Of a stretch of 43,793 nt of DNA, positions 391 through 18,152 are shown piece after piece. The notes below the pieces were generated by a model. The model searched no databases. It was not told the DNA's origin and saw only the letters and a list, made by a program, of their open reading frames with translations. A program made the position numbers and the translations under genes. The DNA is from Candidatus Binataceae bacterium (GTDB taxonomy: Bacteria > Desulfobacterota > Binatia > Binatales > Binataceae), in contig JBAPSR010000073.1 in NCBI GenBank assembly GCA_049281755.1, positions 1 through 43,793 of the forward strand, in the 5' to 3' direction. Positions within the stretch are counted from its first letter, which is position 1, and every line of letters begins with the position of its first letter.

Positions 391-506
391 ACCGCCAGCG
401 GCGCCGACTGGCAGAAATGGGATCGCGTGCTGCGCGACTTTCTGAAGCGCCTCGAATGAGGCGAATTTCAGCGCGCGATAATTCAAGCGCCGTTCGGAGA
501 ATCGTT

Positions 507-1724
507 ATGCCAGATAAAAACCGCGTCGCGTGTGACCTCCTGATTAAAAACGCCCGAGTCTTTGACGGCTCGTCGGTGCGAGAAGGACTCTGCAGCGTCG
601 CAGTCGCCGGCAACAGGATAACCTTCGTCGGCAATGCGACCGTCCCGGCTGCGCGGGAGATTGATGCGGGCGGACGATTTCTGATGCCCGGACTCATCGA
701 TTGTCACGTTCATCTTCTCAACATGTGGACCGCAAAAGATGAGGCGACGATGGCGGCCGATATCGAACATGAACTGCCGAAACGCCTGGGCGACTTCCTC
801 GCGGCGGGCGTGACGACGGTTAAATCGGTCGGGGACTCGCAAGAAGACATCCTGCGGGTGCGCACAATGCTCGCGAACGGAGACTTGACCGGCCCGCGCC
901 TGTTCGCGACCGGCGCCGCGTTCGCCGCGCCGGGCAGCCATCCTGCAACCACCATCTATGGTCAAAATCCGTGGGTCCGCGATCGCGCAACCATCGTGGC
1001 CGACTCGCCCGAGCGAGTGCGCGAAGCGGTGCGGCGCATGGCCGAGAAGAAGGTCGACGCGATCAAGATCGTTCATCAGGGCGGATGCAGGCACGGAGAA
1101 CCGTATTTTTTCAAAGCCGAAGCGCTGGGACTGAATGTCCAGATTCTCCGAATCGAGCGCGAAGTTCTGGGCGCAATAATAGACGAGGCGCACAGGCACA
1201 ACCTCAAAGCCACCGTGCATACCGTCGATCAAGAAGCCGCGATCGAGGCGCTCGAAGCCGGCGCGGACGGACTCGAACACGGAATCATGGAACACAAACT
1301 CAGTGACGACCGCGTGATCGAGTTGCTGCTGCGAAATCGCGCCTCCTACGTCCCCACGCTCTGGTTGCTCGGGTTTGAAGAGCAAGCTGCCGCGGTGAGA
1401 TATGCCAACCTTAAACGGATCTCAGAGGCGGGCGTGCGAATAGCACTCGGCACCGACAGCTTCTGCGGATTCGGCAAGTTCGGCGAAAACACGATCGTCG
1501 AAACCGAGCGCTCTGCAGCGGCGGGAATCGCGCCGCTGGCAATTCTGAAGATGGCCACCAAAGACGCCGCCGAGCATCTTGGGACGGACGCTATTGGAAC
1601 GATCGCGCCGGGAAAACTCGCAGACCTGATCCTGCTCGACGCAGACCCGTCCACCGACATCAGCGCTCTGCGCAAACTTCGGATGGTCATCAAAGACGGC
1701 GCAGTTCTTTCCGACAGGATGTGA
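507..1724 (+). CDS. metal-dependent amidohydrolase (amidohydrolase_1 superfamily, prolidase/imidazolonepropionase-like)
   Basis: ATG 507 lies 6 nt after GGAGA (496-500); the ORF track's 345 start is an Arg-rich extension. Motifs: 'PGLIDCHVHL' (HxH metal site), 'ALGTDS', C-terminal 'KLADLILLDADP'. Confidence 0.8.
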   Translation: MPDKNRVACDLLIKNARVFDGSSVREGLCSVAVAGNRITFVGNATVPAAREIDAGGRFLMPGLIDCHVHLLNMWTAKDEATMAADIEHELPKRLGDFLAAGVTTVKSVGDSQEDILRVRTMLANGDLTGPRLFATGAAFAAPGSHPATTIYGQNPWVRDRATIVADSPERVREAVRRMAEKKVDAIKIVHQGGCRHGEPYFFKAEALGLNVQILRIEREVLGAIIDEAHRHNLKATVHTVDQEAAIEALEAGADGLEHGIMEHKLSDDRVIELLLRNRASYVPTLWLLGFEEQAAAVRYANLKRISEAGVRIALGTDSFCGFGKFGENTIVETERSAAAGIAPLAILKMATKDAAEHLGTDAIGTIAPGKLADLILLDADPSTDISALRKLRMVIKDGAVLSDRM

Positions 1725-1729
1725 TTCGC

Positions 1730-4237
1730 CTAGGACCGCGGCGTGACTTTGGCGCGCCAAAGTAGGCCTTTGGTCTCGCACTTTCGCATCGCGTCGAAGA
1801 GATTGACGCCGGCGGGGAGCGTCTGGAAGCCGACGATCCAGAGCTCATCCTGATTTGCGCCCGCCAATGCGCATGCGACAGGTTGGCCGCCCGGGGTGAC
1901 GATGCGCGCCGTCAGTCGGCCCGCGGAATCGTAACGCATGACGCCCTCGTCACCCATCGGGCAGCACGCCCAGACGCCGCCGGCGCGATCGCCCGTCATG
2001 CCGTCAGTTGTAAGACCTACGAACGGCCGGGGTTCACTGAGATCTCCTTCGAGCGAGATTCGGCATTGCACGACGCGGCCCGTCATCGTCTCGGCGAGGT
2101 AGAGCATCTGGCCATCCGGGGAGATAACCAGACCGTTAGGGAACAGCAGATTCTCCAGCACAACTTTGAAGCGGCCCGGTCCGTCGACGCGAATCAGCCT
2201 TCCTTTCTTCTGCGCCGGCGCCTCTCCATGAAAGACTCGCGCTCCGATATCGTCGACATACAGCCGGCCGTGAGCGTCGACGACGACATCGCCCAGGTAG
2301 CCCGTAACGATCGAACTGAGGTCGGCATATTCCTCGAGCGCCTGCCCATTGGTCACGTAGAGCTTGGCGTCGAACATCGAGGTGATAACCAGACGGCCAT
2401 CTGGCAGGACGCCCAAGCCGTTGGGCTGCTGCGGCATTTCGAACATCGTCTTCAGGCTTGATGTCTTCGTATCGAACTCGAGGACCTTGCGCCCGATCAT
2501 GTCGGAGAAGACCAGGCGGTCGCCGATCGCGCGGAGCCCTTCGCCGAAGAGGAAGCCTCCGGCAACGCGCTCGGCAATTGCCACCTCTACTTTTCGCTCT
2601 GGCATCAGCACACCCGTGACACGATCGAGGATCGCGTCCGGATTCGAGGGTTCTTCCTTCGAGCGCCATGCGACGTGTTGATCGGGGCGCACCAGCACCA
2701 GGTCGTACCCCTCATATTTCTTGACCGCCTCGGCTTCAGGAACGTCGAGCACGGTCATCGGGATACGGCGCGATTCGGCCTCGACGACGAGTGCGCGGCC
2801 GCTCGGCGGATGCGCTCCGACGCGCAACAGGGTGAACGCGGGACCGAGCTGATCAAAGATCGATTGGCCGTCCGCGCGCCAGATATGCGGCAGCCGGACG
2901 CCGGGCCATGAGGTCTCGACATACTTCTCGACCGAGAACGGCGGCGGCTCGGTTCCATCCTGATCGATAACCGGTGAGTTGGCGTAGTAGTAGCCGAGCT
3001 GGAAGCCGGGGCAATCGAATTCGTTGACCGTCAGTTCCCAGATCTTCTGGCCGAATTCCTTTCGCGCCGCCTCGCTCGCTTCGAGCTGTGCAAGACATTC
3101 GGCGCTTTCTTTGCTGACCCAGGCGAAAGCGTGCATCCATTTGACCGCCTGCGAGGCGACCTTCTCGCCAATCGGAGCGCGCTCGATCTCGTAGCTGTCG
3201 AGAATCTTCGGGTCGAGCCATCCTTGCGCCACGCCGGCGATACGCCAGCCGACCGCGATCGCGTCGGCGACGCCGGCGTTCATGCCGAAACCTCCCATCG
3301 GAATCCAGATATGCGCGGCGTCGCCGGCGAGGAAGACTCGACGCTCGCGGAATTTGTTCGCGAGCATCGCCCGCGGGATCCAGCGTGCCTGGCCGACGAT
3401 CTCGTATTTGAATGGCTGCCCGATCATCCGGAACATCGCCGGCTCAGGATCGAACGTTGCCAAATCCTCGCCGCGCGGAACCGTGGTGTGCAGGAGCCAC
3501 AAATCTTCGCCATCGATCGCGATCAGCACACCGCCGCCCGCCGCGCGATACATCCATCCGGGCATCCTGGCGCAGAGCTTCTTGATGTCCGGTGAACGTA
3601 CGAAGGTCGAGCAATTGCGGCCGAGCTCCGGGATACCTTCCAGGCGTGCGCCGATGTCGCGGCGGACGATGCTGTTGGAGCCGTCGGCGCCCACCAGGTA
3701 CTGCGCGCGAAACGTAGTCTCCTCGCCGGTTTCGACCTCCCGCGCCGTAGCACTGACGCCGGTCGCGTCCTGCGTCATCGAGAGGTATTCCCATCCTTCG
3801 CGCAGATCGACGCCGTGCGCCTCGACCGCGTGCTTGCGCAAGACCGGCTCTACATAGAGCTGCGAGATGAAATGCTGCGGCTCGGGAGTCGGCCAATCCG
3901 AGGCGATGCCTTTGGCGGTTCCGCTTTTGTAATCGGCCGGAGTTGCGCGACGGTAGCGCGTTAATTCATGACCGCTCAGACTGGTCATATAGATGACGTC
4001 GGTATTGTAGTCGGGCGGCAATCCGGCGGCGCGCACCGCGTCGGCGCATCCCAGGCGGCGGAAAATCTCCATCGAGCGCGCATTGGTGGTGTTGCAGCGC
4101 GGGTTTGGCGGAATCTGCCGGCGCCGCTCCAGCACGATGCTTTTAATCCCGCGCAGCGCGAGATCCATGCTCAGAGTGACGCCAACCGGGCCGCCGCCGG
4201 CGATCAGTACAGGGATCTCTGTGATGCTACCGCTCAT
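1730..4237 (-). CDS. fusion protein: group-A FAD aromatic-ring monooxygenase (N-terminal ~540 aa) + SMP-30/gluconolactonase/LRE-like beta-propeller (C-terminal ~280 aa)
   Basis: 835-aa ORF starting at ATG 4237. N-terminal motifs: 'IAGGGPVGV' (GxGxxG), 'GADGSNSIVR', 'GDAAH'. C-terminal propeller-type repeats: 'PNGLGVLPDGRL', 'GDVVVDAHGRLYV', 'FPNGLVISPDGQMLYLAE'. Confidence 0.8.
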   Translation of the reverse strand: MSGSITEIPVLIAGGGPVGVTLSMDLALRGIKSIVLERRRQIPPNPRCNTTNARSMEIFRRLGCADAVRAAGLPPDYNTDVIYMTSLSGHELTRYRRATPADYKSGTAKGIASDWPTPEPQHFISQLYVEPVLRKHAVEAHGVDLREGWEYLSMTQDATGVSATAREVETGEETTFRAQYLVGADGSNSIVRRDIGARLEGIPELGRNCSTFVRSPDIKKLCARMPGWMYRAAGGGVLIAIDGEDLWLLHTTVPRGEDLATFDPEPAMFRMIGQPFKYEIVGQARWIPRAMLANKFRERRVFLAGDAAHIWIPMGGFGMNAGVADAIAVGWRIAGVAQGWLDPKILDSYEIERAPIGEKVASQAVKWMHAFAWVSKESAECLAQLEASEAARKEFGQKIWELTVNEFDCPGFQLGYYYANSPVIDQDGTEPPPFSVEKYVETSWPGVRLPHIWRADGQSIFDQLGPAFTLLRVGAHPPSGRALVVEAESRRIPMTVLDVPEAEAVKKYEGYDLVLVRPDQHVAWRSKEEPSNPDAILDRVTGVLMPERKVEVAIAERVAGGFLFGEGLRAIGDRLVFSDMIGRKVLEFDTKTSSLKTMFEMPQQPNGLGVLPDGRLVITSMFDAKLYVTNGQALEEYADLSSIVTGYLGDVVVDAHGRLYVDDIGARVFHGEAPAQKKGRLIRVDGPGRFKVVLENLLFPNGLVISPDGQMLYLAETMTGRVVQCRISLEGDLSEPRPFVGLTTDGMTGDRAGGVWACCPMGDEGVMRYDSAGRLTARIVTPGGQPVACALAGANQDELWIVGFQTLPAGVNLFDAMRKCETKGLLWRAKVTPRS

Positions 4238-4405
4238 GTCGTGTTCTCAATTCGCTTGTTGCAACGAGCCGCAACGGACCTTCCCTCTGAGATCGATCGT
4301 ACTGCTATCCTGCGCCACTTCTAATCCCGCGCCAAATCGCGCCGGCATTTCTCCAGTCTCGAATCGTTAGTATCCTGTCAGACGGCCCAGGGAGCTGCGA
4401 CGACG

Positions 4406-4792
4406 ATGAGCAGTGATGATGGAATTCCAGATCATCCGACCATAAACCCTCAGTTTGACCGGATGAAAGCAGGAGAAGCCGCGCGCGACCCGCGCCGGCC
4501 CGGCGAGAAGTGTCGCGCCGAGCGCAATACATATGAGCCGAGGATCGACCGGGCGCGCTGCGAAGCGAAAGCGGAGTGTGTCGCCGTGTGTCCATACGGG
4601 GTCTTCGAGGTACGCCGAATCGACGATCAGGACTTTCGGGGCCTGTCGTTCTTCGGGCGACTGAAAAGCCGCGCTCACGGAAAGCTCACCGCCTACACTC
4701 CGCGCGCCGATGCCTGCCAAGCCTGCGGGCTTTGCGTAGTCGCCTGCCCAGAGGGAGCCATCACACTGATGCCACGAGCCCAGCAGTCGTGA
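4406..4792 (+). CDS. 4Fe-4S ferredoxin-type iron-sulfur protein
   Basis: Canonical 'CQACGLCVVACP' (CxxCxxCxxxCP) plus an atypical 'CEAKAECVAVCP' motif; 8 Cys in total. AGGGAG lies upstream of ATG 4406. The gene is divergent from the monooxygenase fusion. Confidence 0.7.
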   Translation: MSSDDGIPDHPTINPQFDRMKAGEAARDPRRPGEKCRAERNTYEPRIDRARCEAKAECVAVCPYGVFEVRRIDDQDFRGLSFFGRLKSRAHGKLTAYTPRADACQACGLCVVACPEGAITLMPRAQQS

Positions 4793-5012
4793 TTCGGCAA
4801 CCAGATCTCAACGTGTGATAAACCGGCAGTTACATGAACCACTCAGAGCGCGTGGATCGCACCGCAGCAGGAATACACCGCGCGGTTCCTGAAAAGCTTG
4901 CGTTTCTGTTCCACGAACTCAACATTTCTCCGTCTGATCTCTCCTGTTTGATCGGGCCAGCACGTTGCGGAGCTTTTTTCACGCCAAGGATCGAATGCGG
5001 ATCTACGATGCG

Positions 5013-5105
5013 AGCCAATGATTGATAAGGGCAACCTGTTCATGGCATTAGGAGCAGTCTCGGATCTCGCGGCGGAGGGCATCTCGAGAGCGATGAGTGC
5101 GTCAG
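5013..5105. repeat. left copy of a ~93-nt imperfect direct repeat (partner 7583-7677)
   Basis: Hand alignment: the first 38 nt match 31/38 (AGCCAATsATTGATA...GTTCrTGGCATTA). A 9/9 GCGGCGGAG block follows. The last 28 nt match 21/28 and include ATGAGyGCrTCAG (ATG plus codons S-A-S). Confidence 0.8.
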
Positions 5106-5112
5106 GGCGAAT

Positions 5113-5913
5113 ATGATTCTCGACTGGATCTACAACAACCCAACCTGGCTGTGGGGGACGATCCTGGTCGTGCTCTTCACCGCGGCCGCGTGCGGCGGAC
5201 TGATGATCTTTCATCGATTGGTACACGTCAATTTGCGCAGGGCGCACAACGATCTTGCCGGATTCACCATTGCCATCATCAGTGTGCTGTACGCGGTGCT
5301 GCTGGCCTTTATCGCGATCGCCACGTGGGAATCTTTCGCGCGGGCATCCGATATCGTAGAGAACGAATCGGACTACGCTGGCGGCATGTACCTCGACACG
5401 GCGGGCTTGCCGAATGCCAAGGGCCAGGAGATTCGCGACGCGCTGGTAAAGTACGTCGAGGTGGTTATCGACGTGGAGTGGCCGATCCAGCGCGAGGGCA
5501 AGACGCCCGACCAGGGATGGAAGCCGCTGCGTGACCTCGCGACGGCGATCGCGACGATACATCCGCAAAATTCCGGCGAAGCGGTGATCGAGGCGGAGCT
5601 GCTCAAGTCATGGAACGAGCTCTACGACGCGCGCAGCGCGCGGCTGTCGGCAGTCCAGGGACATATTCCGGGCGTGATCTGGTGCATCGTCTTTTTCGGC
5701 GCGGCGATCACGACCGGCTATACCTACCTGTTCGGTTTCGAAAACTTCGGCATGCATCTGGCGATGACCGCCACGGTCGCGGCGACACTCGCGATGGTCA
5801 TAGTGATGATCATCGCTCTCGACTGGCCATTCCGCGGCGAGATCAGCGTCTCGGCCGATCCGTTCGTCATGACTCAACAGTCGTGGGCCGTCGCGCCAAT
5901 CAACCAGAAATAA
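5113..5913 (+). CDS. DUF4239-like (bestrophin-like) integral membrane protein
   Basis: 266-aa ORF with two N-terminal and two or three C-terminal hydrophobic helices flanking a soluble middle. The N-terminal 'LWGTILVVLFTAAACGGLMIF...FTIAIISVLYAVLLAFIAIATWE' pattern resembles DUF4239, judged from memory. The start ATG overlaps the stop of a 7-codon uORF. Confidence 0.6.
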   Translation: MILDWIYNNPTWLWGTILVVLFTAAACGGLMIFHRLVHVNLRRAHNDLAGFTIAIISVLYAVLLAFIAIATWESFARASDIVENESDYAGGMYLDTAGLPNAKGQEIRDALVKYVEVVIDVEWPIQREGKTPDQGWKPLRDLATAIATIHPQNSGEAVIEAELLKSWNELYDARSARLSAVQGHIPGVIWCIVFFGAAITTGYTYLFGFENFGMHLAMTATVAATLAMVIVMIIALDWPFRGEISVSADPFVMTQQSWAVAPINQK

Positions 5914-5980
5914 AACACGAACCGCCGTTCAGCTTCCCGTGTCCTCCATGGTATACCGAAAAAGTCGTGAGGCGGCGCAA

Positions 5981-6904
5981 ATGTCCGAAAGTTCGTATAT
6001 CGTACAACTGTCCGATGCGTTCGACTGGATGGCGGATCGACAAACCGCTTCTATTCACGCGATCGTCACCGATCCGCCGTATGGCCTGAAAGAGTACACC
6101 GACATCGAAAAACGAAAACTCCGCCAAGGTCAAGGCGGCGTTTGGCGAATCCCGCCAGCATTCGACGGCTGCAAACGCAGCCCACTTCCGAGATTCACCG
6201 TGCTTGACGGCGCAGATCGCGGGGCGTTAAGAACTTTTTTCGAGCGCTTTGCTAAAGGCGCGATGCGCGTCCTGGTTCCGGGCGGCCACATCTTCATCGC
6301 CACCAACCCGCTACTCTCGCACTTGGTCTACTTGCCCATGATAGAAGCCGGCTTTGAGAAGCGGGGCGAGATCATCCGACTTGTTCAAACTCTTCGGGGC
6401 GGGGACCGGCCCAAAAATGCGCATGTGGAGTTTAGCCAGGTTTCAGTAATGCCACGGTCCGGGTGGGAACCGTGGGGGCTTTTCCGCAAGCCTTGCGAAG
6501 GACGAGTACAGGATAACTTGCGCAAGTGGAAAACGGGCGGCCTTCGCCGCATTTCGTCACTTCAGCCTTTCAGCGATGTAATCCAGTCATCGCCTACTCG
6601 CGCTGAAGAGAGAGCCATCGCGGACCACCCTTCGCTGAAACCTCAAAACTTTATGCGGCAGATCGTGCGCGCCTCGCTTCCGCTCGGGTGCGGCGTGCTA
6701 CTGGATCCATTCATGGGCGCGGGCTCGACGATCGCTGCGGCCATGGCAGTTGGATACGACAGCATCGGTTTGGAACTTGATCCCAGCTATTTCAGGATCG
6801 CGCAGCGCGCGATTCCACAACTTGTGCAATTGCAGGGCACTGGAACGATTCGCAAGAAAAATGAGCGCTTACAATTGGATTCCAGCGACCTTTTCCAGCT
6901 ATGA
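5981..6904 (+). CDS. beta-class DNA methyltransferase (N6-adenine or N4-cytosine; DPPY type)
   Basis: 'IVTDPPYGL' (motif IV) is near the N-terminus and 'LLDPFMGAGSTIAAA' (motif I, FxGxG) near the C-terminus, giving beta-class order. ATG 5981 lies 8 nt after GAGG; the ORF-track start 5939 is less likely. Confidence 0.85.
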   Translation: MSESSYIVQLSDAFDWMADRQTASIHAIVTDPPYGLKEYTDIEKRKLRQGQGGVWRIPPAFDGCKRSPLPRFTVLDGADRGALRTFFERFAKGAMRVLVPGGHIFIATNPLLSHLVYLPMIEAGFEKRGEIIRLVQTLRGGDRPKNAHVEFSQVSVMPRSGWEPWGLFRKPCEGRVQDNLRKWKTGGLRRISSLQPFSDVIQSSPTRAEERAIADHPSLKPQNFMRQIVRASLPLGCGVLLDPFMGAGSTIAAAMAVGYDSIGLELDPSYFRIAQRAIPQLVQLQGTGTIRKKNERLQLDSSDLFQL

Positions 6905-6913
6905 GCCTAGAGC

Positions 6914-7516
6914 GTGGCGGTTGTTAGGAACAAAGTTGATCGGGACAGGTTCAATCCTGATGCGGCGCTGCTCTACGAATTGCGTCGCGAGGATTTTGCG
7001 CTGGCGATGCAGGATGTCTACGATTTTTTCTATGACGTGAACCGGCTATTGACGTCAAAGGGACTGACTCGTTTCGATGACATGCTCAGGCCAGCGAATA
7101 TGTCCGGAATGCTCTCCGACATGCTAACGGCCAGTTTGTCAAAGCACTCTCGAACTTTGACCCAGAATACCTACTTCAACGGACATCCAGACCTGATCGT
7201 CAACGGCGTCTATCCGCATAATTCCGTGAAAGCTGGAATTGAAGGAATCGAGATCAAGAGCACTCGCAAATCGGGCGGCGCGGTTGACACTCATGGCGCA
7301 CGCGATCAATGGATGTGCAGCTTCGTTTATCGCGTTGATTGCCAAACCGAGCCTGCCCACGATCGCGCACCCATGGCGTTCACGGAAGTATATTTAGCAA
7401 AGGTCACTGAGGCCGACTTTCGGGACAACCCTAGGGGCAAGCTCGGCACGCGTACATCGACACTCCACAGGCTCGGGATTGCAAAGCTCCGAGTAAACTG
7501 GGTCTATCGACTCTAG
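6914..7516 (+). CDS. putative type II restriction endonuclease (PD-(D/E)XK fold), family not recognised
   Basis: GTG 6914 lies 10 nt after the methyltransferase stop. 'GHPDLIV' (D93) and 'GIEIKST' (E113-x-K115), 20 residues apart, fit the PD...(D/E)xK motif. About 50% GC in a hand-counted 100-nt sample, versus about 65% in the adjacent ACAD gene. Confidence 0.6.
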   Translation: MAVVRNKVDRDRFNPDAALLYELRREDFALAMQDVYDFFYDVNRLLTSKGLTRFDDMLRPANMSGMLSDMLTASLSKHSRTLTQNTYFNGHPDLIVNGVYPHNSVKAGIEGIEIKSTRKSGGAVDTHGARDQWMCSFVYRVDCQTEPAHDRAPMAFTEVYLAKVTEADFRDNPRGKLGTRTSTLHRLGIAKLRVNWVYRL

Positions 7517-7582
7517 GCGCGGCAGTAACCTGATAAAGAGCAAAACAAGCACAAAGCCCACCAAGCCCCGATAACCCGTGTC

Positions 7583-7677
7583 AGCCAATCATTGATAGCC
7601 GCGACCCGTTCGTGGCATTACACGATCATTCCTGCATCTGGCGGCGGAGAGCATTTCAAAACCGATGAGCGCATCAG
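7583..7677. repeat. right copy of the ~93-nt imperfect direct repeat (partner 5013-5105); includes the native 5' UTR and first 4 codons of the ACAD gene
   Basis: See the left copy. The offset is 2570 nt at the left edge and 2572 nt at the right edge, due to a 2-nt indel in the middle block. Confidence 0.8.
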
Positions 7678-8837
7678 AAAAATCGAGAGTCGAACCGGCG
7701 CGCCGCATCCAGTTCGCGTTCACGGATGAGCAGGAGCAGTTCCGCTCGGCGCTGCGGCGATTTCTGAATGACAAATCGCCCACGACCGAGGTTCGCCGCC
7801 TGATGGCGACCGCCGAGGGTTACAATCCCGAGGTGTGGCGCCAATTGAGCGCGGAACTCGCGCTGCCCGGAATCCAAATCCCGGAGCAATATGGCGGCGC
7901 GGGGTTCGGCATGGTCGAGCTTTGTATCGTTACTGAGGAGCTGGGCCGCGCATTGCTTTGCGCGCCCTATTTCTCAACCACAGTACTCGCGGCCAATGCG
8001 ATCCTGAACGCCGGCACCGAAGCGCAGAAATTGAGCTTGTTGCCCGACCTTGCAAGCGGCGCGCGCCTTGCGACGCTTGCGGTCACCGAGCTCGACGGCA
8101 ACTGGGATCCACGCGGAATCGAGCTCGCCGCCACGCCAGTCGCCGACGGTTATCTTCTTGACGGAACTAAGAGCTACGTCGTGGACGGGCATATAGCGGA
8201 CCTGCTGGTCGTTGCCGCACGCGTAGGCGCGAAAGGTGGCGATGGAGGTTTGGCGCTATTCACGCTCGGCGCGAATTCCGGCGGCATCGAACGACGCCTT
8301 CTGGAAGCGATGGATCCGACTCGCAAGATCGCGCGGATCGATTTTCACAAGGCGCATGCGGATTTGCTCGGCACCTTGGATGACGGCGCGAAGCCACTCG
8401 GCCGCACGCTCGACCAGGCGGCCATCGCGCTGGCGAATGAAATGGTGGGCGGCGCGCAAGCGATGCTCGACTCGGCGGTGGATTACGCGAAGCTGCGGGT
8501 TCAGTTCGGGCGAACAATCGGTTCGTTTCAGGCGATCAAGCACAAATGCGCCGACCTGCTGCTGGACGTGGAGCTTGCCAAGTCAGCGGCGTACTGCGCG
8601 GCTCAAACCGCCGCGATCGACGATCCGGAGTGGCCCGCGCTGGCCTGCCTGGCGAAAGCCGCGGCGTCAGAAACCTACCTGCGTACGGCGGCCGAATGTA
8701 TTCAGATCCACGGCGGTATCGGCTTCACCTGGGACAACGACACGCATCTGTGGTTCAAGCGCGCGAAAAGCTCTGAGGTGTTTCTGGGCCAACCGAGCTA
8801 CCACCGGGAGCTCCTGATGCAGCGCTGGGGAGTTTGA
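7665..8837 (+). CDS. acyl-CoA dehydrogenase family protein
   Basis: 390-aa ORF with ACAD N-terminal, middle and C-terminal pattern: 'FTDEQEQFRSALRRFL', 'GGAQAMLDSAVDYAKLRVQFGRTIGSFQAIKH', 'IQIHGGIGFTWD'. Confidence 0.85.
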   Translation: MSASEKSRVEPARRIQFAFTDEQEQFRSALRRFLNDKSPTTEVRRLMATAEGYNPEVWRQLSAELALPGIQIPEQYGGAGFGMVELCIVTEELGRALLCAPYFSTTVLAANAILNAGTEAQKLSLLPDLASGARLATLAVTELDGNWDPRGIELAATPVADGYLLDGTKSYVVDGHIADLLVVAARVGAKGGDGGLALFTLGANSGGIERRLLEAMDPTRKIARIDFHKAHADLLGTLDDGAKPLGRTLDQAAIALANEMVGGAQAMLDSAVDYAKLRVQFGRTIGSFQAIKHKCADLLLDVELAKSAAYCAAQTAAIDDPEWPALACLAKAAASETYLRTAAECIQIHGGIGFTWDNDTHLWFKRAKSSEVFLGQPSYHRELLMQRWGV

Positions 8838-10085
8838 GTGATGAGCAAAGTCACCGAAACCGAGGTGCGAGCCGAGGTGCGTGAGTGGCTCGCGGCCAAT
8901 TGGGATCCGGAATTGTCCCTGGCGGCGTGGCGCAACAAGCTTGCCGACTCCGGCTGGGGAATGCCGCAATGGCCGGAGGCATGGTACGGCCGCGGTCTAC
9001 CGGTGACTCTCGCGCGGGTGGTGGAAGAGGAATTCGCGGCGGTGGGCGCGGTGACGGCGGCGAAAACGGGAGTGCGACTGCTGGCGGCGGCCACGCTGCT
9101 CGAGCATGGATCGGATCTGCAGAAAAAGAAGTTCCTGCGCCGCATCCTCACGGGAGAAGACTCGTGGTGCCAGCTGTTCAGCGAACCGGGCAGCGGCTCG
9201 GACCTCGCGGGCGCAACCACCAGAGCGGATTTGAACGGTGACCATTGGATCGTCAACGGCCAGAAGGTGTGGACCACGAGTGCGCATCATGCCGACCACG
9301 GCCTGTTGCTCGCCCGGACCGATTGGGATGCGCCCAAGCATGAGGGGCTGTCGTATTTCGTGATCGACATCAAACAGCCCGGCGTCGACGTGCAGCCGCT
9401 CAAGCAGATGAACGGCCACGCATCGTTTAACCAGGTGTTCTTCACCGACGCGACGATTCCGGCCGAGAACCTGGTCGGGCGCGTCGGTGACGGCTGGAAG
9501 ATCGCGATGACAACGCTCGCCCACGAGCGCCGCGGCGCCGATGGACTGAGCTCACCGTCGAGGCGCAGGTCGCGCACCGGACGTATCCACGCCGAGGAGC
9601 GGGCCGAGCTCGAAAAAGCAAACCAGCCCTACACGTGGTATCCGCAACGCGCGGGGCGGGTGGACCTGGTGATCGAGCGCGCCAAGGAGACTGGCGCAAA
9701 CAAGGATCCGGTTGTGCGCCAGGAGATCGCCAAGCTGATGATCATGGCGAAGTCCGCGGAGTGGACCGCGCGCCGCGCGCGCGCTGCGCAGCAACACGGG
9801 CGTCCGCAGGGGCCCGAAGGATCGCTCGGAAAGCTCGCGGCCAGCAACGTGGCCCGAGCCGCCGCCCGCGTACACACGTTGATCACGGGGGCGCAGGCGA
9901 TGCTCACCGGTAGCGGCAGCCCGCGCGACGGGATCATCGCGGAGATTCTGGTGTCGGTACCGGCGGTTTCGATCGCCGGAGGCACCGACGAGATTCAGCG
10001 CAACATTATCGCCGAGCGCGTGCTCGACCTGCCCAAGGAGCCGCGTTTTGACACCGGCCCATTCCGCAACGTGCGCAAGAACTAG
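8838..10085 (+). CDS. acyl-CoA dehydrogenase family protein (second subunit-like paralog)
   Basis: GTG 8838 / ATG 8841 lies immediately after the upstream TGA (8835-8837). Motifs: 'WCQLFSEPGSGSDLAG', 'GQKVWTTSAHHAD', 'AGGTDEIQRNIIAERVL'. Confidence 0.85.
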   Translation: MMSKVTETEVRAEVREWLAANWDPELSLAAWRNKLADSGWGMPQWPEAWYGRGLPVTLARVVEEEFAAVGAVTAAKTGVRLLAAATLLEHGSDLQKKKFLRRILTGEDSWCQLFSEPGSGSDLAGATTRADLNGDHWIVNGQKVWTTSAHHADHGLLLARTDWDAPKHEGLSYFVIDIKQPGVDVQPLKQMNGHASFNQVFFTDATIPAENLVGRVGDGWKIAMTTLAHERRGADGLSSPSRRRSRTGRIHAEERAELEKANQPYTWYPQRAGRVDLVIERAKETGANKDPVVRQEIAKLMIMAKSAEWTARRARAAQQHGRPQGPEGSLGKLAASNVARAAARVHTLITGAQAMLTGSGSPRDGIIAEILVSVPAVSIAGGTDEIQRNIIAERVLDLPKEPRFDTGPFRNVRKN

Positions 10086-10270
10086 CGAAGCTCGCGGCGA
10101 TTGCGTCGCCGACGAGCCAGATCGAGTAGCGGAACGCCTCCTGCGGGCGCGACGTTGAACCTTAACAAAAAGGTCCTTAAAAGATATCCCAGAATCTGAA
10201 AAGCTCCACGGATGTTCATCTGCTTGACGATCTTTCGGAGCAAAAGCGCGATGTATGAGCGCTCGGTCCG

Positions 10271-11686
10271 ATGCTGCTGATGACTCCGAGCGCACGGCTG
10301 TGGTGGGGTCAGTTGTTATTGACGATCGGTCTGACGTGTCTGTTGTGCATGGCGATGAGCTCTAAGGGCGCGGCAGAGGAATCTTCGCCGCCCGCGAGCT
10401 CGAGCGATACACCGCAGCAGACCTGGAACTGGCACGTTCAAAGCACCGACATCGTTCAGGGCTATCCTGACTTTCCGGCAAAGTATTCGGGGCACAACAG
10501 CCTGCCCAGCGGCGGTCAAACGCGCGAAACCGTTTCGCTGGATTTGATGGCCGGCGTCCGGCTGTGGCGCGGCGCCGAGGCGCACGTTGACGGCTTGATG
10601 TGGCAAGGTTTTGGTCTGGCCAACACCGAGGGCGCAGGAGGTTTTCCCAATGGCGAAGCCTTTCGTCTTGGCACCAAGGTTCCCAACGGCACCTTCTCGC
10701 GGCTGTTCATTCGGCAAACCGTCGGCCTTGGCGGCGAGCAGGAGGACGTGCCGGATGGCGAATTCACACTCGCTGGAAGACAGGATATTTCCCGGCTCGT
10801 ATTCACACTCGGACGGATGTCGGCCGCGGACATCTTCGATCGCAACGCGTACGCCAATGATCCTCGCACCCAATTCATGAACTGGGCGTTCGTGAACAAC
10901 GAGGGGTGGGACTTTCCGGCGGACAGCCTCGGATACACCACGGGACTGGCGGCGGAACTGAATCAGCCGAATTGGGCTTTGCGTTATGGATTCTTTCAAG
11001 TACCGCGTTTCCAGAATGGCTTGACTGCGGAAGATCAAATCCTCAAGTGGCCGTACGATAGTTCAGCGCAAGACGGCCCGTTTTTACAGGGATGGGGAAT
11101 GGTGACGGAGCTCGAGCGACGTTACAGTATAGACGTTCATCCTGGGGTGATTCGTTTCCTCGCCTATCTCAATAGAGCCGATATGGGCAGTTACCAGGAA
11201 GCGGTTGACAGTCCAATCCGGCCGGCCGACATCACTGCGACGCGCAAATATCGCTTAACGTATGGTTTCGGGGCGAACCTTGAACAAGAGATTGCGAAAG
11301 ACGTCGGGTTGTTCTCGCGCCTGGGCTGGAACGACGGCAAAAACGAAGCGTGGATGTTCAGCGATGTGGACTACGCAGCCTCACTGGGATTGAGCATCCA
11401 GGGCGGATCCTGGAATCGGCCCGGCGACACGGTCGGATTGGCGGGCGCTCTAAACGGCATCTCCAAATCGGAACAGAGATTTTTTGCGGACGGCGGCCTG
11501 GGCATTTTGGCGGGCGATGGCAGCTTAAGTTATGGCTGGGAAAAAGTTTTCGAAACCTACTACAACTTTCAAATCTGGAAGACTATTTACGCCACCGCGG
11601 ATTACCAGTTCATCAGCAATCCGGCATTCAATCGCGATCGCGGACCGGTGTCAGTCTTCGGCGCAAGACTTCACTGGGAATTGTAA
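10271..11686 (+). CDS. OprB-family carbohydrate-selective porin (outer membrane)
   Basis: N-terminal signal peptide ('LLLTIGLTCLLCMAMSSKGAA'). OprB-like blocks 'YPDFPAKYSGHNSL' and 'NWAFVNNEGWDFPADSLGYT'. Alternating beta-strand pattern to the C-terminus. Confidence 0.7.
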   Translation: MLLMTPSARLWWGQLLLTIGLTCLLCMAMSSKGAAEESSPPASSSDTPQQTWNWHVQSTDIVQGYPDFPAKYSGHNSLPSGGQTRETVSLDLMAGVRLWRGAEAHVDGLMWQGFGLANTEGAGGFPNGEAFRLGTKVPNGTFSRLFIRQTVGLGGEQEDVPDGEFTLAGRQDISRLVFTLGRMSAADIFDRNAYANDPRTQFMNWAFVNNEGWDFPADSLGYTTGLAAELNQPNWALRYGFFQVPRFQNGLTAEDQILKWPYDSSAQDGPFLQGWGMVTELERRYSIDVHPGVIRFLAYLNRADMGSYQEAVDSPIRPADITATRKYRLTYGFGANLEQEIAKDVGLFSRLGWNDGKNEAWMFSDVDYAASLGLSIQGGSWNRPGDTVGLAGALNGISKSEQRFFADGGLGILAGDGSLSYGWEKVFETYYNFQIWKTIYATADYQFISNPAFNRDRGPVSVFGARLHWEL

Positions 11687-11712
11687 CGAGTGATGGTTGG
11701 CGGACGGAGCAT

Positions 11713-11730
11713 CGCGTAACGCGTTTTTTT
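11713..11730 (+). terminator. weak rho-independent terminator-like element after the porin gene
   Basis: CGCG-taa-CGCG short stem followed by a T7 run (11724-11730). A T7 run is unusual in this GC-rich DNA, but the stem is only 4 bp. Confidence 0.35.
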
Positions 11731-11743
11731 AGAGGAACGAGTC

Positions 11744-12643
11744 ATGGATCACAGAGAACAGCCGGTCGTCGCAATGATAGGCGCGGGCGAAATGGGAGCG
11801 GCGGTCGGACGACGGCTTAAGATGCGAGGTGCGCGGGTTCTTATTTCTCTCAAGGGGCGCAGCCCCGAGAGCGAACGGCGAGTACGCCGCGCGGAGCTCG
11901 AGGTCATCGATGATGACGCGGCGCTGGTGCGTGACGCGGATTTCGTGCTGTCGATCGTCCCACCGGGAGTGGCGATTGAAAGCGCTCGGCGGTATCGAAG
12001 CGCGCTCGACGCGGCGGGGAAAGATGCGATCTTTGTCGATTGCAACGCGATCTCTCCGGCGAGCGCGCGCCGTATCGGCGAGGTCCTGTCAGGATGCAAG
12101 TGCGGTTACGTCGATGCGGGAATTATCGGAGGTCCGCCGCCCGAGGATTTGAACGCCGCCGGTCCGCGTTTCTACGCATCAGGCGAACATGCTCGGGACT
12201 TTGCTAACCTCTCCCGCTTTGGACTGGACATCGTTGTGCTCGAGGGTCCGATCGGCGCGGCTTCAGGTTTGAAGCTCAGCTATGCCGGTCTGACCAAAGG
12301 CATCACCGCGCTGGGTGCGGCGATGATCGCGGCCGCATCGCGCGAAGGACTGGCCGACGCGCTGCGGAGCGAACTCGCACGCAGCCAGCCGCAGATCCTT
12401 AGCCGGCTTGCGCGGCAGATTCCCGCGATGTTCCCGAAGGCGCATCGATGGGTTGCGGAGATGAGGGAGATCGCGGAATTTCTCGACGGCAACGATCGCG
12501 GCGCGATGATTTACGAAGGCGCCGCATGCCTGTACGAACGAATAGCCGCAGAGAATGCGGATCATGAGCAGACCGCCGGCATCCGGGCGCTCGCAGATTT
12601 CTGCGCCGCCACGATCGATTCAATTCGCAAGTCGTCGAAGTAA
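11744..12643 (+). CDS. NAD(P)-dependent oxidoreductase (6-phosphogluconate/3-hydroxyisobutyrate dehydrogenase-like N-domain, DUF1932-like C-domain)
   Basis: Rossmann motif 'VAMIGAGEMGAAVG'. AGAGGA RBS upstream of ATG 11744. Confidence 0.7.
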   Translation: MDHREQPVVAMIGAGEMGAAVGRRLKMRGARVLISLKGRSPESERRVRRAELEVIDDDAALVRDADFVLSIVPPGVAIESARRYRSALDAAGKDAIFVDCNAISPASARRIGEVLSGCKCGYVDAGIIGGPPPEDLNAAGPRFYASGEHARDFANLSRFGLDIVVLEGPIGAASGLKLSYAGLTKGITALGAAMIAAASREGLADALRSELARSQPQILSRLARQIPAMFPKAHRWVAEMREIAEFLDGNDRGAMIYEGAACLYERIAAENADHEQTAGIRALADFCAATIDSIRKSSK

Positions 12644-12667
12644 AACTTCAAGGCGAAGCGAGAGAGG

Positions 12668-13426
12668 TTATTTTCCTTTCCAATTGGGAGGCCGCTTCTG
12701 CGCGAACGCGAGCCCGCCCTCGCGCGAGTCTTCGGTCTTGAGGAGCTGCTCGTAGCCCTCGTGCTCGAGGCGCAATCCCTCCGCCAGCGAAACATCGAGA
12801 CCGCGCAACGCCACTCGCTTGATTTGCTGCACGGCCAGCGGCGCCGATTTGCAGATCTCGCCTGCAATCTGGTCGCACTCGCTCATGAGCTGGTTCATCG
12901 GAACAACGTGATCGACCAAGCCCAATCGCAGCGCTTCCGCCGCCCCGATTCGGTTGCCGGTGTACAACATCTGCAGCGCACGTCCGAGTGGAATCAACCG
13001 GGGCAGACGCTGGGTGCCTCCGCCGCCGGGCAGCCATCCGAGCCGAACTTCGCCGAAACCGAACTGCGCATGCTCCGCCGCGACGCGAATATCGCACGCG
13101 AGGGCTTGCTCGAGACCGCCGCCGTTGGCGTGGCCATTGATCGCCGCGATTACGGGTTTGTGCAGTTCGAGCATTACCGGGAACGGTGATTTTCCCGCAG
13201 CCGCGCCGCGTCCCTCGACATAGTTCGATTTCACATCGCTGCCGGCGCAGAACGCGTGCTCACCCGCGCCGGTCAAAATCGCCACCAGCAGTTTCGGATC
13301 GTCGCGAAACTCGGTCCAGATTTCGGCCAGCCGATTGTAAGTTTCAAAATCGCATGCGTTGAGGCGCTCCGGGCGATTGATGGTAACGCGGGCGATCGGA
13401 CCGTCTTTGTCGAAAATCACCTTCAT
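12668..13426 (-). CDS. enoyl-CoA hydratase/isomerase (crotonase) family protein
   Basis: Motifs 'RVTINRPERLNA', 'FCAGSDV', 'GHANGGGLEQALACDIRVA'. ATG 13426 with an AGGGG RBS is preferred over the TTG 13453 of the ORF track. Confidence 0.85.
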   Translation of the reverse strand: MKVIFDKDGPIARVTINRPERLNACDFETYNRLAEIWTEFRDDPKLLVAILTGAGEHAFCAGSDVKSNYVEGRGAAAGKSPFPVMLELHKPVIAAINGHANGGGLEQALACDIRVAAEHAQFGFGEVRLGWLPGGGGTQRLPRLIPLGRALQMLYTGNRIGAAEALRLGLVDHVVPMNQLMSECDQIAGEICKSAPLAVQQIKRVALRGLDVSLAEGLRLEHEGYEQLLKTEDSREGGLAFAQKRPPNWKGK

Positions 13427-13449
13427 CGAAATACCCCTGGCTTCGGCGG

Positions 13450-14643
13450 TCAACTCGATTCAGACGAGCCCAGCACTTCGGTCAATCCGAATGCGCTGCG
13501 GCCGAGAAACTCGAGGCTCTCATCGCTGTCGAGCGGATGATAAAGTCCGGCGCGCACGTCGCGGAATAAACGCTCGAGCGGCAGACGCTTGAAATACGAG
13601 GCGCCGCCGACAGCGCGCAGAGCCAGATCGACCACGCGCACCGAATTTTCGACCGCGATCATGCGGGCGGCCACCGCCTTGCGCGACCAGCTCATCGGGT
13701 CGTCGCGATCGACCTCCGCCGCCGCCTTCCACATGGCGGCCCGCGCCCCTTCGATCAGGAGGTCCATCTCACCGACCTTGTTGTATACACTCGGCAGATG
13801 GCTCATCGGATGTTTCAGCGGGTAGCGTTTGCGATCACGCATGAACTCGACGGTGAAATTACGCGCCGCGAGCGCGATTCCAATATACGGTGCGCCGATC
13901 GCGAAGGGGGCCTTCGCGAACACCTTGGTGACGCGGCCGCTGCGCGAAACCGGCCGTTGCAGCACCACGTCGGATTCCGGCACAAACGCGTCCGTCAGCT
14001 CCGAGCTCCGCGACTGGGTCGATCGCATGCCCATCACGTCCCAATCATCTTTGAATGAGAATCCCTGCGTCTCGCGCGGCGCGATGTAGCAGGTGATGAT
14101 GCTCGCGCGCTCGGGAGCGTCCTCCCACAGTGCCTCGAAGAAGAACAGATCCGCAGCGATACTCTGGGTGCCGAAGATCTTGCGCCCGTTCACGATCCAT
14201 CCGCCCTCGACCCGGCGCGCGGCGGTGCGCGGGCGCAGATTGATCACCGCGTAGTCCGGTTCCGAGCCTGAGCCAGCGCAAATCAGGCGATTCTTCACTA
14301 TGCGGTAAAGTTTTTCTTCGACGTTGGGAGCTTTGAACTTGCGATACAGGTCGCACAGCAATCCTACGGTGTTGAAGTGCATGTTGATCGCAAGCGCGGT
14401 CGCTCCGCATCCCTGGGCGAGCCGTTCCTGCGTCTTGATGCGCTCCAGCAGCGTCGCCCCCATCCCGCCGAATTTCTCCGGAATAGTGAGCACCGTGTAG
14501 CCGGTGTCCTTGAGCCGCGCGTAGTTCTCATGCGGAAACGAAGCTTCTCGATCGTGCTCGGCCGCACGGGTGGCGAAATCGTCAGCGAGCCCGGCGGCGA
14601 GATCGATAAAGCGCTGCTCGCGCTCGGTATTGACCTGGTTCAT
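13450..14643 (-). CDS. acyl-CoA dehydrogenase-fold flavoprotein (could be a dehydrogenase or an ACAD-fold flavin monooxygenase)
   Basis: 397-aa ORF with ACAD-fold pattern. The C-terminal 'LERLFRDVRAGLYHP' tail is typical of the DszC/SfnB-like branch, judged from memory. Confidence 0.75.
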   Translation of the reverse strand: MNQVNTEREQRFIDLAAGLADDFATRAAEHDREASFPHENYARLKDTGYTVLTIPEKFGGMGATLLERIKTQERLAQGCGATALAINMHFNTVGLLCDLYRKFKAPNVEEKLYRIVKNRLICAGSGSEPDYAVINLRPRTAARRVEGGWIVNGRKIFGTQSIAADLFFFEALWEDAPERASIITCYIAPRETQGFSFKDDWDVMGMRSTQSRSSELTDAFVPESDVVLQRPVSRSGRVTKVFAKAPFAIGAPYIGIALAARNFTVEFMRDRKRYPLKHPMSHLPSVYNKVGEMDLLIEGARAAMWKAAAEVDRDDPMSWSRKAVAARMIAVENSVRVVDLALRAVGGASYFKRLPLERLFRDVRAGLYHPLDSDESLEFLGRSAFGLTEVLGSSESS

Positions 14644-14653
14644 TCGCGGTGCC

Positions 14654-15511
14654 TCAGGACCATGCGTCGTGGCCGGCTATATAATTCATGTTGTTCTGCG
14701 ACGGATTGCGGTTCACGAGAGGACGCATGAAGAGCGGATGACGCATGCTGCGCACCTCGTGCTCGATCGTGAAGAGCACGGAACCGGTTTCAGGATCGGC
14801 GATATCCTTGAATCGATACTGATGCTGGTCGCTCTCCTCGCTGACAAGCCCCTTCTCCTTTAGCGCGTGATGAGGTCCCGAGAAGTCCGCGACGTAAACC
14901 TGCACATGGTGGCCGTCGTAAGCGGGTATCTGGCCGGCGGTTTCGCGAAAGATGAACTGTTGCCCAATCCCAACCGAGACTTGCGCGTAGCGCCCGTCGC
15001 GATCTTCCGCGGCCGCCGCCGGAGTGCGCATCGTCTGGCGGTAAAATCGCGCGATTCCATCTGCCGCACCCGCGGGTACGGTGAACTCGACATACGCGAT
15101 ACCAAGCCGTATCGCACCGTTGTTCGAGTCGGGGAAATGGCATCGGATACGATTGCCCCACGGACAGATCGTCTCGACGAACGATTCGTGTTCATGGAAA
15201 TCAAAGCGCGTGCCCTCGAGCCTTTTGCGCAAGCGCGTAAGACGCTTCACCAGCGCCTCGCGATCCGGCAGCACGATACCAACGTGGCCGCGCAGCACTT
15301 GCGCCTGGCCGGTGGGCAGGTGGAATTGGCTGCGTCCGACATTGACCCACATATTGCTGACGCTGGTCATCAGGTATGGGTCGCGGGTCAACCCTAATCC
15401 GGCGATGTAGTACAGCGTGGCGAGTTGCTGATCAGGAGCGGTGATATTGACGTGCTCGAGCGCGACAATGTTGCCGAGATCCTCGGCCGCCCGATCGAAT
15501 TGACCATCCAT
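14654..15511 (-). CDS. VOC (glyoxalase/dioxygenase)-like protein, function unknown
   Basis: GGAGG RBS before ATG 15511. 'LEHVNITAPDQ' resembles the first beta-strand and metal-site His of VOC modules. It is the first gene of a VOC-ACAD-crotonase operon, with 10-nt and 23-nt gaps. Confidence 0.45.
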   Translation of the reverse strand: MDGQFDRAAEDLGNIVALEHVNITAPDQQLATLYYIAGLGLTRDPYLMTSVSNMWVNVGRSQFHLPTGQAQVLRGHVGIVLPDREALVKRLTRLRKRLEGTRFDFHEHESFVETICPWGNRIRCHFPDSNNGAIRLGIAYVEFTVPAGAADGIARFYRQTMRTPAAAAEDRDGRYAQVSVGIGQQFIFRETAGQIPAYDGHHVQVYVADFSGPHHALKEKGLVSEESDQHQYRFKDIADPETGSVLFTIEHEVRSMRHPLFMRPLVNRNPSQNNMNYIAGHDAWS

Positions 15512-15691
15512 GTGCTTTCCTCCAATCGCGCCGCTGGGCGCGCGACCAATACCAGAGCGGATTTACCACGAAAAATGTCGATGGCGGAAGCCGCGTTCCG
15601 CTATATAGTGATCATGTGCTCTCGCGGTGTTGGTTCCAAACAGTGAATGATCCCGACGGACGACGTCCTTGAGATGACCTGGAGGCTATGC

Positions 15692-16093
15692 ATGAACACC
15701 TTAAAACTTCTGGTAATAGTTGCCGTAGCCGGGATCTGCTGCATGGTGGCCGCTCCCAGAATAGAGGCTCAGGTCAGCATCAACATTGGACCCGAGCCTG
15801 TATGCCCATACGGTTACTATGACTACGCTCCTTATACGTGCGCTCCCTACGGCTACTACGGCCCGGAATGGTTTAGGGGTCGTGAGTTCGTTGGCGCTGG
15901 GCCGTGGTTTCATGGCCCTAAGACCTTCCAGGGCCATGTAAATAACAATTTCGATCCTCAGCACGGCTATAAGGGCCCATCACCAAAGATTGGCGAAAAA
16001 CCTGAGCCGGCGAAGCGAGTCGATAAGGTTGCCAACTTCAAAGGAAATGAAGTGCGTGATGGACGCGGTCACGTAGGCGGGGACAAACACTAA
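15692..16093 (+). CDS. small secreted Tyr/Gly/Pro-rich protein, unknown function
   Basis: ATG 15692 lies 6 nt after GGAGG (15681-15685). Signal peptide 'MNTLKLLVIVAVAGICCMVAAPRIEAQ'. Mature part is low-complexity: 'CPYGYYDYAPYTCAPYGYYGPEWF'. Confidence 0.6.
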   Translation: MNTLKLLVIVAVAGICCMVAAPRIEAQVSINIGPEPVCPYGYYDYAPYTCAPYGYYGPEWFRGREFVGAGPWFHGPKTFQGHVNNNFDPQHGYKGPSPKIGEKPEPAKRVDKVANFKGNEVRDGRGHVGGDKH

Positions 16094-16327
16094 TAACCGA
16101 CGGCTCGTGGAATCATTTCCTGGGTGCCTGGAAATCCTCCCCGACCGAGTGGGAGCCGTTGATATTCTCGTAAACCGTCCGTTGTTGTCCTGAGCTGTAG
16201 GCGAAGGATGACGGACAAGAGCGTCGAAGCTTCCATTCTCCGCTACGTACTGCGCGTGTGGATTACCGTTCAGTCGCGTTCGGCAGCTAGTCGTCCTCCC
16301 CAATCGGGCGAGGCATAATCTGGCGTC

Positions 16328-18142: not shown

Positions 18143-18152
18143 GTTCTCCCTC

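Follow-up and report, generated by a model that had tools for sequence, protein, structure and literature searches.

The window analysed here is the whole 43,793-nt stretch of contig JBAPSR010000073.1 (assembly GCA_049281755.1) from a Candidatus Binataceae bacterium, and it carries, 5′ of the ACAD1-ACAD2 gene pair, three genes bracketed by two diverged direct repeats (copy 1, upstream; copy 2, downstream). These genes encode a DUF4239 membrane protein, a DNA methyltransferase (MTase) and a putative restriction endonuclease (REase), the latter two forming a type II restriction-modification (RM) unit. The three-gene block is composite, not one unit: the DUF4239 gene was probably relocated together with a duplication of the ACAD1 5′ region, and the RM unit was inserted separately, most likely later. 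An initial annotation, which correctly placed the three genes between the repeats, had taken the repeats for the target duplication of an RM insertion and expected an RM-empty site to carry a single repeat. The syntenic locus of a relative, L117 (loci fetched from other genomes are given as L numbers), contradicts both points, having no MTase and no REase gene and keeping two repeat copies that bracket DUF4239 alone. The coordinates of all features are collected in Table 1.

Alignment of positions 4950-5150 against 7520-7720 gave a single local alignment, 5013-5105 with 7583-7677, containing one 2-nt indel. Its score of 74 was reached by none of 2000 dinucleotide shuffles (mean 16.7, sd 2.2, maximum 31), and the copies are about 77% identical. 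A repeat scan resolved the pair into two blocks, one of 38 nt (82%, offset 2570) and one of 54 nt (76%, offset 2572); the repeat first aligned by hand is thus real, with both of its offsets recovered and its block counts (31/38, and 9/9 for GCGGCGGAG) correct. Comparison with orthologs revealed that the homology extends slightly past the alignment, to about 5112 in copy 1 and 7683 in copy 2, and takes in CGAAT from ACAD1 codons 5-6. Similarity between the copies peaks in the blocks CAAT-N-ATTGATA, TTC-R-TGGCATTA and GCGGCGGAG, and the spacers between these have diverged. The motifs of the copies also include CCAATSATTGATA / TTCRTGGCATTA, and a 9-bp palindrome overlaps the -35-like hexamer. The relic ACAD start codon of copy 1 is carried by ATGAGTGCGTCAG, and the AGT GCG / AGC GCA differences are synonymous changes in ACAD1 codons 2-3. 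The mini-ORF (open reading frame) that can be read from the relic ATG ends in a TGA overlapping the ATG of DUF4239 (ATATGA), and it is unconserved: L117 has AGG in place of the relic ATG of copy 1, and a further relative, L095, has lost the segment by deletion.

The ACAD1-ACAD2 pair is conserved across Binataceae genomes, in which its neighbours vary, and identical proteins are present on a contig of a Candidatus Binataceae metagenome-assembled genome, GCA_049676145.1. Copy 2 is orthologous to the single ACAD1 upstream region of L006, L007, L008, L009 and L014, as well as to that of L117. In the first five of these the region carries TTC(G/C)TGGCATTA, GCGGCGGAG and ...GAGCGATGAGCGCATCAGACGAATCGAG, and TGGCATTACACGATCATTCC is identical in L008 and L117. 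As the ortholog upstream regions are single and match copy 2, it is copy 2 that represents the native control region 5′ of ACAD1, and copy 1 is its paralog. Among the 104 fetched loci, the repeat motifs occur only 5′ of ACAD1 orthologs and, in the window lineage, 5′ of DUF4239, and they were found nowhere else in the window. This confinement disfavours a dispersed operator and agrees with the initial annotation, which had viewed the repeat as duplicating the ACAD1 5′ region together with its start codon; the sequence comparison bears this out as a true duplication.

For the promoter, conservation suggests a putative layout of TTGATA, 18 nt and a TG-extended CATTAC/CATTAG. A scan for consensus sigma-70 promoters gave no match inside either copy, and a sigma-54 reading of TGGCAT was rejected, with no conserved -12 TTGC in either copy or in the orthologs. 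An RNA element in the leader was rejected as well; a search of the leader against Rfam gave no match, and its folding was no better than that of shuffles (z between 0 and +1.4). A further possibility was that copy 2 and the 5′ end of ACAD had been imported from an L006-like allele through recombination; a sliding-window comparison found no breakpoint.

The DUF4239 gene (a Bestrophin-like protein) has a native-like composition (GC 60.0%, GC3 0.805), and its homologs form a smooth identity gradient. Orthologs with 85-89% amino acid identity reside at a different site with unrelated flanks, a lipoate/2-oxoacid dehydrogenase cluster of the order E2/HAD...DUF4239...Lpd-LplA-LipA-MlaA, and the homology to them is limited to the coding sequence, beginning at the ATG and ending at the stop codon. 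These orthologs at the usual site are without the repeat motifs, and in the complete genome OY970324.1 the DUF4239 gene (L100) lies about 3.2 Mb from the ACAD pair (L010). On these sequence comparisons, DUF4239 would be a native gene that was relocated beside ACAD1 in the window lineage. The usual site is also a hot spot for insertions. What lies between DUF4239 and Lpd-LplA-LipA varies among L097-L101, L105-L107 and L110-L114: the gap is empty in L105-L107, contains a DUF4145 gene and a 266-aa ORF in L097-L099 and a CopG antitoxin gene in L100, and is occupied in L111-L112 by an IS1595 transposase gene with an HTH/M78 peptidase gene.

The L117 locus is part of a 2.44-Mb contig from the metagenome-assembled genome ERZ25039501; it runs collinear with window positions 393-19012 at about 88-90% nucleotide identity, in the order FAD-monooxygenase/SGL(-), copy 1, DUF4239, copy 2, ACAD1-ACAD2-NADb-ECH-ACAD3. 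Two further loci, L095, whose genome is ERZ25039553, and L096, carry DUF4239-MTase-REase-ACAD1 and have undergone three deletions. One removed the leader half of copy 1 (window 5053-5105), another the RM tail together with the promoter half of copy 2 (about 7540-7642), and a third the 5′ end of the monooxygenase gene and the region upstream of it. What remains is one promoter half 5′ of DUF4239 and one leader half 5′ of ACAD1. Since L117 and the window keep full copies and the RM tail of the window matches that of an independent RM copy, the state of L095 results from deletions and is not ancestral; the inverse reading, an ancestral L095-like split filled later in the window, was rejected on the same evidence, L117 being the sister of L095. 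The three deletions are bounded by microhomology (L095:9955-10005 and L095:12425-12460; also in L096), DUF4239-MTase-REase-ACAD1-ACAD2 in L095 now resembles a single operon, and the start codon of the L095 monooxygenase gene was rebuilt from the CAT of the ATCATTGATA motif.

The RM unit differs from its surroundings in composition. Its GC content is 0.552 and its GC3 0.62, against GC3 values of 0.74-0.82 for the ACAD genes and 0.805 for DUF4239. By gene, GC is 53.1% in the REase gene and 56.5% in the MTase gene compared with 62.6-65.9% in the ACAD genes, so the low GC of the nuclease gene noticed earlier was borne out by measurement. Among windows of equal length, the RM part has a GC in the lowest 1.5%, and the three-gene block shows no significant tetranucleotide deviation. 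The MTase matches Pfam N6_N4_Mtase (PF01555, 9e-18) and PADLOC MTase_II (PDLC03215, 1e-116), contains the motifs TDPPYG and DPFMGAGST, and in the PDB matches DNA MTases including DpnA, CcrM, MboIIA and RsrI by sequence. The adjacent 200-aa ORF has no Pfam match and no NCBIfam or PDB representative, and a PDB sequence search was empty. Its residues D93, E113 and K115 are invariant in 32 homologs, and its AF2 model (pLDDT 87.6) has NaeI, BglI, EcoRV and SfiI as top PDB folds, all of them weak matches (E 5e-3 to 0.1, none at or below 1e-3; TM at most 0.45), as is the match to PADLOC REase_II (6e-3). Homologs of the protein number over 8000 across phyla at 72-75% identity, each of them entered as hypothetical, and the clusters at 70% identity or above, likewise over 8000, include Nitrospira, Planctomycetota, Chloroflexi, Betaproteobacteria and Syntrophales.

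Elsewhere in Binataceae, copies of the RM pair follow a transposase gene of the IS1595 family (L086-L089), lie between genes for Pkinase and PP2C (L090-L094) or adjoin a porin gene (L108), that is, in at least three other contexts and never with DUF4239. The closest copy (L086-L088) has 81% nucleotide identity. DNA homology delimits the unit at 5981-7530 by comparison with L086, and it extends the leader from about 5946 by comparison with L108 and the tail to about 7575 by comparison with L087. The MTase/REase pair is a foreign, mobile unit, as the initial annotation had held. In L087 (3430-6320; likewise in L086 and L088) the RM copy follows the 3′ end of a tRNA gene and the transposase gene, and a 50-aa lysine-rich ORF (MKSKIKSRKPPGPEPE...KPKKKKAK) follows the REase gene, in frame with it; a decayed remnant of this ORF is kept at window 7536-7574.

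Comparison with L117 also locates the insertion. Deleting window positions 5944-7582 restores a DUF4239-ACAD1 spacer collinear with that of L117; therefore, the insertion point of the RM unit (5944-7574) is the 34-nt spacer that separates DUF4239 from copy 2, at 4 nt 5′ of copy 2. The same comparison sets the position of an 8-nt direct repeat, CCCGTGTC, at the edge of the insert, where it may be a short target-site duplication, and 8 bp is the usual length of the target duplication in the IS1595 family. An exact repeat of at least 8 nt arises in 7.7% of shuffles, for which reason CCCGTGTC is only suggestive of such a duplication. A tblastn search of the window with the L087 transposase gave nothing better than E=0.66, no transposase ORF is present within 5944-7574, and terminal inverted repeats were neither detected in the L087 element nor noticed at the ends of the window unit. 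The earlier statement that no integrase or transposase lies nearby is consistent with these results.

The relative ages of the two events were compared at 4-fold sites. Five backbone genes gave divergences of 0.308 (window-L095), 0.275 (window-L117) and 0.224 (L095-L117), from which the tree (window,(L095,L117)) follows. Between the window and L095, DUF4239 has a divergence of 0.305 and the RM genes have one of 0.185, which is lower than those of the backbone (Fisher p=7.5e-5) and of DUF4239 (Fisher p=0.009). Thus, the common ancestor of the RM unit is more recent than that of the host loci, and the sister of L095 is without RM. Composition, the other contexts and the lower divergence together decouple the RM unit from the repeat. 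As for the repeat itself, copy 1 and copy 2 are identical at 71/93 positions in the window and at 62/88 in L117; in orthologous comparisons, copy 1 is identical at 67/89 (75%) and copy 2 at 79/94 (84%). On these figures, the duplication dates to the common ancestor of the three lineages or earlier, and copy 1 decays faster. The copy-1 orthologs of the window, L117 and L095 share TTGATA and TTCATGGCATTAGG without change, and their leader and coding relic decay, as would be expected of a copy 1 that has become the promoter of DUF4239.

Table 1. Positions of the repeat copies, genes and sequence elements in the window
Feature	Position	Strand	Remark
Repeat copy 1	5013..5112	+	paralogous ACAD1 5′ control region, directly 5′ of DUF4239
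Copy-1 palindrome CAATGATTG	5016-5024	+	
Copy-1 -35-like TTGATA	5022-5027	+	
Copy-1 TTCATGGCATTA	5039-5050	+	
Copy-1 GCGGCGGAG	5069-5077	+	
Copy-1 relic ACAD start ATG	5093	+	followed by about 6 relic codons
Relic mini-ORF MSASGRI*, 7 codons	5093..5116	+	starts at the duplicated ACAD1 ATG; read from sequence
DUF4239 / Bestrophin-like membrane protein gene	5113..5913	+	Pfam PF14023, E=7e-60
8-nt direct repeat CCCGTGTC, left copy	5936..5943	+	possible short target-site duplication
Two-gene type II RM unit (putative REase)	5944..7574	+	leader (CTCCATGGTATA...GTGAGGCGG), MTase, REase, decayed tail
Beta-class N6/N4 DNA methyltransferase	5981..6904	+	DPPY near N-terminus, FxGxG near C-terminus
Putative type II restriction endonuclease, 200 aa	6914..7516	+	PD-(D/E)XK motif D93...E113-I-K115
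RM tail	7517..7574	+	decayed remnant of the small basic ORF 3′ of the REase gene in the L086-L088 copy
8-nt direct repeat CCCGTGTC, right copy	7575..7582	+	
Repeat copy 2	7583..7683	+	native ACAD1 promoter, leader, first codons
Copy-2 CAATCATTG + TTGATA	7586-7597	+	
Copy-2 TTCGTGGCATTA	7609-7620	+	
Copy-2 GCGGCGGAG	7641-7649	+	
ACAD1 ATG in copy 2	7665	+	
ACAD1-ACAD2 gene pair	7665..10085	+	module conserved across Binataceae; served by copy 2

The following history is proposed. The DUF4239 gene would have come to adjoin the ACAD1-ACAD2 operon on its upstream side in the ancestor shared by the window, L095 and L117 lineages, and about 100 nt of the ACAD1 5′ control region, reaching from the -35-like element to roughly codon 6, would have been duplicated along with this move. 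Copy 1 would now provide DUF4239 with an ACAD-type promoter, retaining the -35-like and -10-like blocks as its leader, start codon and codons decay, and copy 2 would stay the promoter of ACAD1. Separately, and most likely later, the 1.6-kb RM unit (beta-class MTase and putative PD-(D/E)XK REase) would have entered the 34-nt spacer between DUF4239 and copy 2, possibly by the action of a transposase, given the 8-nt direct repeat. The RM unit would then have been shared between lineages at this locus, either entering the two lineages once, with subsequent spread by flanking homology, or entering twice. In L095, the left flank of the RM unit (GCGGTAACT, L095:10825-10845) resembles the tail after the REase stop codon (GCAGTAACC, L095:12412-12425), a likeness that could be the trace of a former tandem RM copy or chance.

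Several points weigh against this history. A DUF4239-empty site with the left flank of the window was not found, and a scan of metagenomes with the FAD-monooxygenase/SGL protein gave 3 loci, none syntenic beyond that gene; the mechanism of duplication and the ancestral single-copy state are therefore deduced from distant orthologs whose upstream genes differ. The presence of the RM unit in the window and L095 and its absence from L117 fit one gain and one loss equally well, the left RM junctions of the window and L095 are unlike each other, and the 8-nt repeat is statistically weak. The assignment of promoter function to the copies, neither of which had a consensus sigma-70 promoter called, is drawn from conservation, and DUF4239 may have been duplicated rather than relocated.

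The reading of the initial annotation can be upheld if L117 lost its RM pair by precise deletion between the 8-nt repeats, which could mediate such an event. The repeats do bracket all three genes in the window, the RM pair is found in two of the three lineages including the earliest-branching one, so that one gain with one loss is as parsimonious as later spread, and insertion of this kind is documented for RM units (PMC2853133). It is nevertheless an improbable account: RM-free L117 retains both copies, the RM genes are younger at 4-fold sites than DUF4239 and the flanks, DUF4239 has a native composition that the RM unit lacks, the unit occurs in the other contexts without DUF4239, the left junctions differ, and the published repeats are near-identical (44/46 and 417/423; PMC2853133) compared with 77% here. 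Selection rather than duplication could also have produced the likeness of the two segments, if both were binding sites or promoters of one regulon; the block-wise similarity with diverged spacers, the conservation of the same blocks among ACAD1 orthologs and the palindrome overlapping the -35-like hexamer would all suit shared operators. Colinear homology, however, continues through the ATG and about 6 ACAD1 codons into a non-coding position before DUF4239, this coding-derived part decays in L117 and L095 as a relic would, and the motifs are missing from the usual-site DUF4239 orthologs and from all positions other than those named above, which makes a shared operator kept alike by selection very improbable.

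A different origin of the duplication would be a Campbell-type event, in which circular DNA carrying DUF4239 and a diverged ACAD1 5′ copy was integrated by a single crossover instead of a staggered-break duplication. Direct repeats of a homologous segment around an insert are the classic product of such integration, and the identity between copies (70-78%), with copy-1 orthologs themselves 75% identical, allows non-identity from the start. We consider it unlikely: a stretch of about 100 nt with at most 80% identity is a very poor substrate for homologous recombination, the neighbourhood contains no plasmid or phage genes, and the divergence is explained by the faster decay of copy 1 (75% vs 84% in copy 2), with no need for a diverged donor. 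The relocation of DUF4239 with a duplicated ACAD1 5′ region, followed by a separate RM insertion, is thus the reading that we prefer.

Insertion of RM units with long target duplications was described by Furuta et al. 2010 (PMC2853133; Nobusato/Kobayashi), with repeats more than 93% identical. The window resembles these cases in having a gene-sized insert without integrase or transposase, direct repeats longer than 30 bp (about 93-100 nt) that are single-copy in related genomes, and R and M genes between them in a segment of about 2.5 kb (below 20 kb). It differs in that both repeats are present in the RM-free L117, which ties the duplication to DUF4239 instead of the RM unit, in the lower identity of the repeats, and in that no single-copy genome with the same left flank was found. 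Regarding mobility genes, the window has no transposase, and the closest RM homolog from another context directly adjoins a transposase gene of the IS1595 family. That copy (L086-L088), directly after the transposase gene, together with the 8-nt repeat of the window, recalls IS1595-family transposons with passenger genes, from which the window unit differs by the missing transposase (tblastn), the failure to find terminal inverted repeats and the weakness of the 8-nt repeat. Type II RM systems with a beta-class MTase and an EcoRV/NaeI-like REase are matched by the Pfam and PADLOC assignments of the MTase, by the invariant D...ExK of the adjacent 200-aa ORF with type II REases as the best folds of its model, and by the wide and recent spread of the MTase-REase pair across phyla; unlike them, the REase family here is without a Pfam or NCBIfam model or a close solved relative, and its fold matches have E values of 5e-3 or worse. 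In promoter capture with gene relocation, as would apply here, DUF4239 gains the promoter and leader of its neighbour, the blocks being kept while start codon and codons decay. The peculiarity of the present case is that the start codon of the neighbour was duplicated too, giving a transient overlapping mini-ORF, and the event is deduced from comparative genomics only.

Other gene-sized differences are found in the same syntenic block. The segment of about 4244-4939, with a ferredoxin gene (4406-4792) and most of orf63 (4834-5025), is absent from L117 and L095, and therefore the ferredoxin gene is a further gene-sized indel in an intergenic spacer; the 224-nt spacer between the monooxygenase gene and copy 1 in L117 aligns to window 4238-4243 and about 4940-5012. 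As for orf63, it is unlikely to be a gene. L103 has a ferredoxin homolog (79% amino acid identity) 2.6 kb from the monooxygenase gene, on its other side. An OprB porin gene (10271-11686; segment about 10115-11733) between ACAD2 and the NAD-binding dehydrogenase gene is likewise absent in L117 and L095, which have at this site a 35-nt spacer and an unrelated 346-nt spacer with long inverted repeats, respectively. With a GC3 of 0.67, below that of its neighbours, it is a third cassette-like indel of this block.

Insertion accompanied by long duplication of the target is a possible mechanism for the relocation of DUF4239. More specifically, this mode of insertion might move single genes besides RM units, the DUF4239 coding sequence having been inserted with its start codon at ACAD1 codon 7 under duplication of about 100 nt; we regard this as conceivable but doubtful. 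If true, such an insertion would have copied the promoter, leader and start codon of the host gene, thereby wiring DUF4239 to ACAD regulation at once, and the later stages would be on record, namely a relic start codon that has decayed in L117 and, in L095, deletion of complementary halves into one operon that drives the RM genes. Overall, the locus represents fairly ordinary evolution and leaves current concepts unchanged. It illustrates that a repeat-flanked RM pair is easily misread as a long-target-duplication insertion unless an RM-free relative is consulted. The three lineages provide a natural series in which a promoter and start codon were duplicated, the conserved blocks retained, the redundant parts decayed or deleted and the spacer invaded by an RM unit, and the same series documents a 200-aa REase-like family, uncharacterised and very widespread, that is paired with a beta-class MTase.

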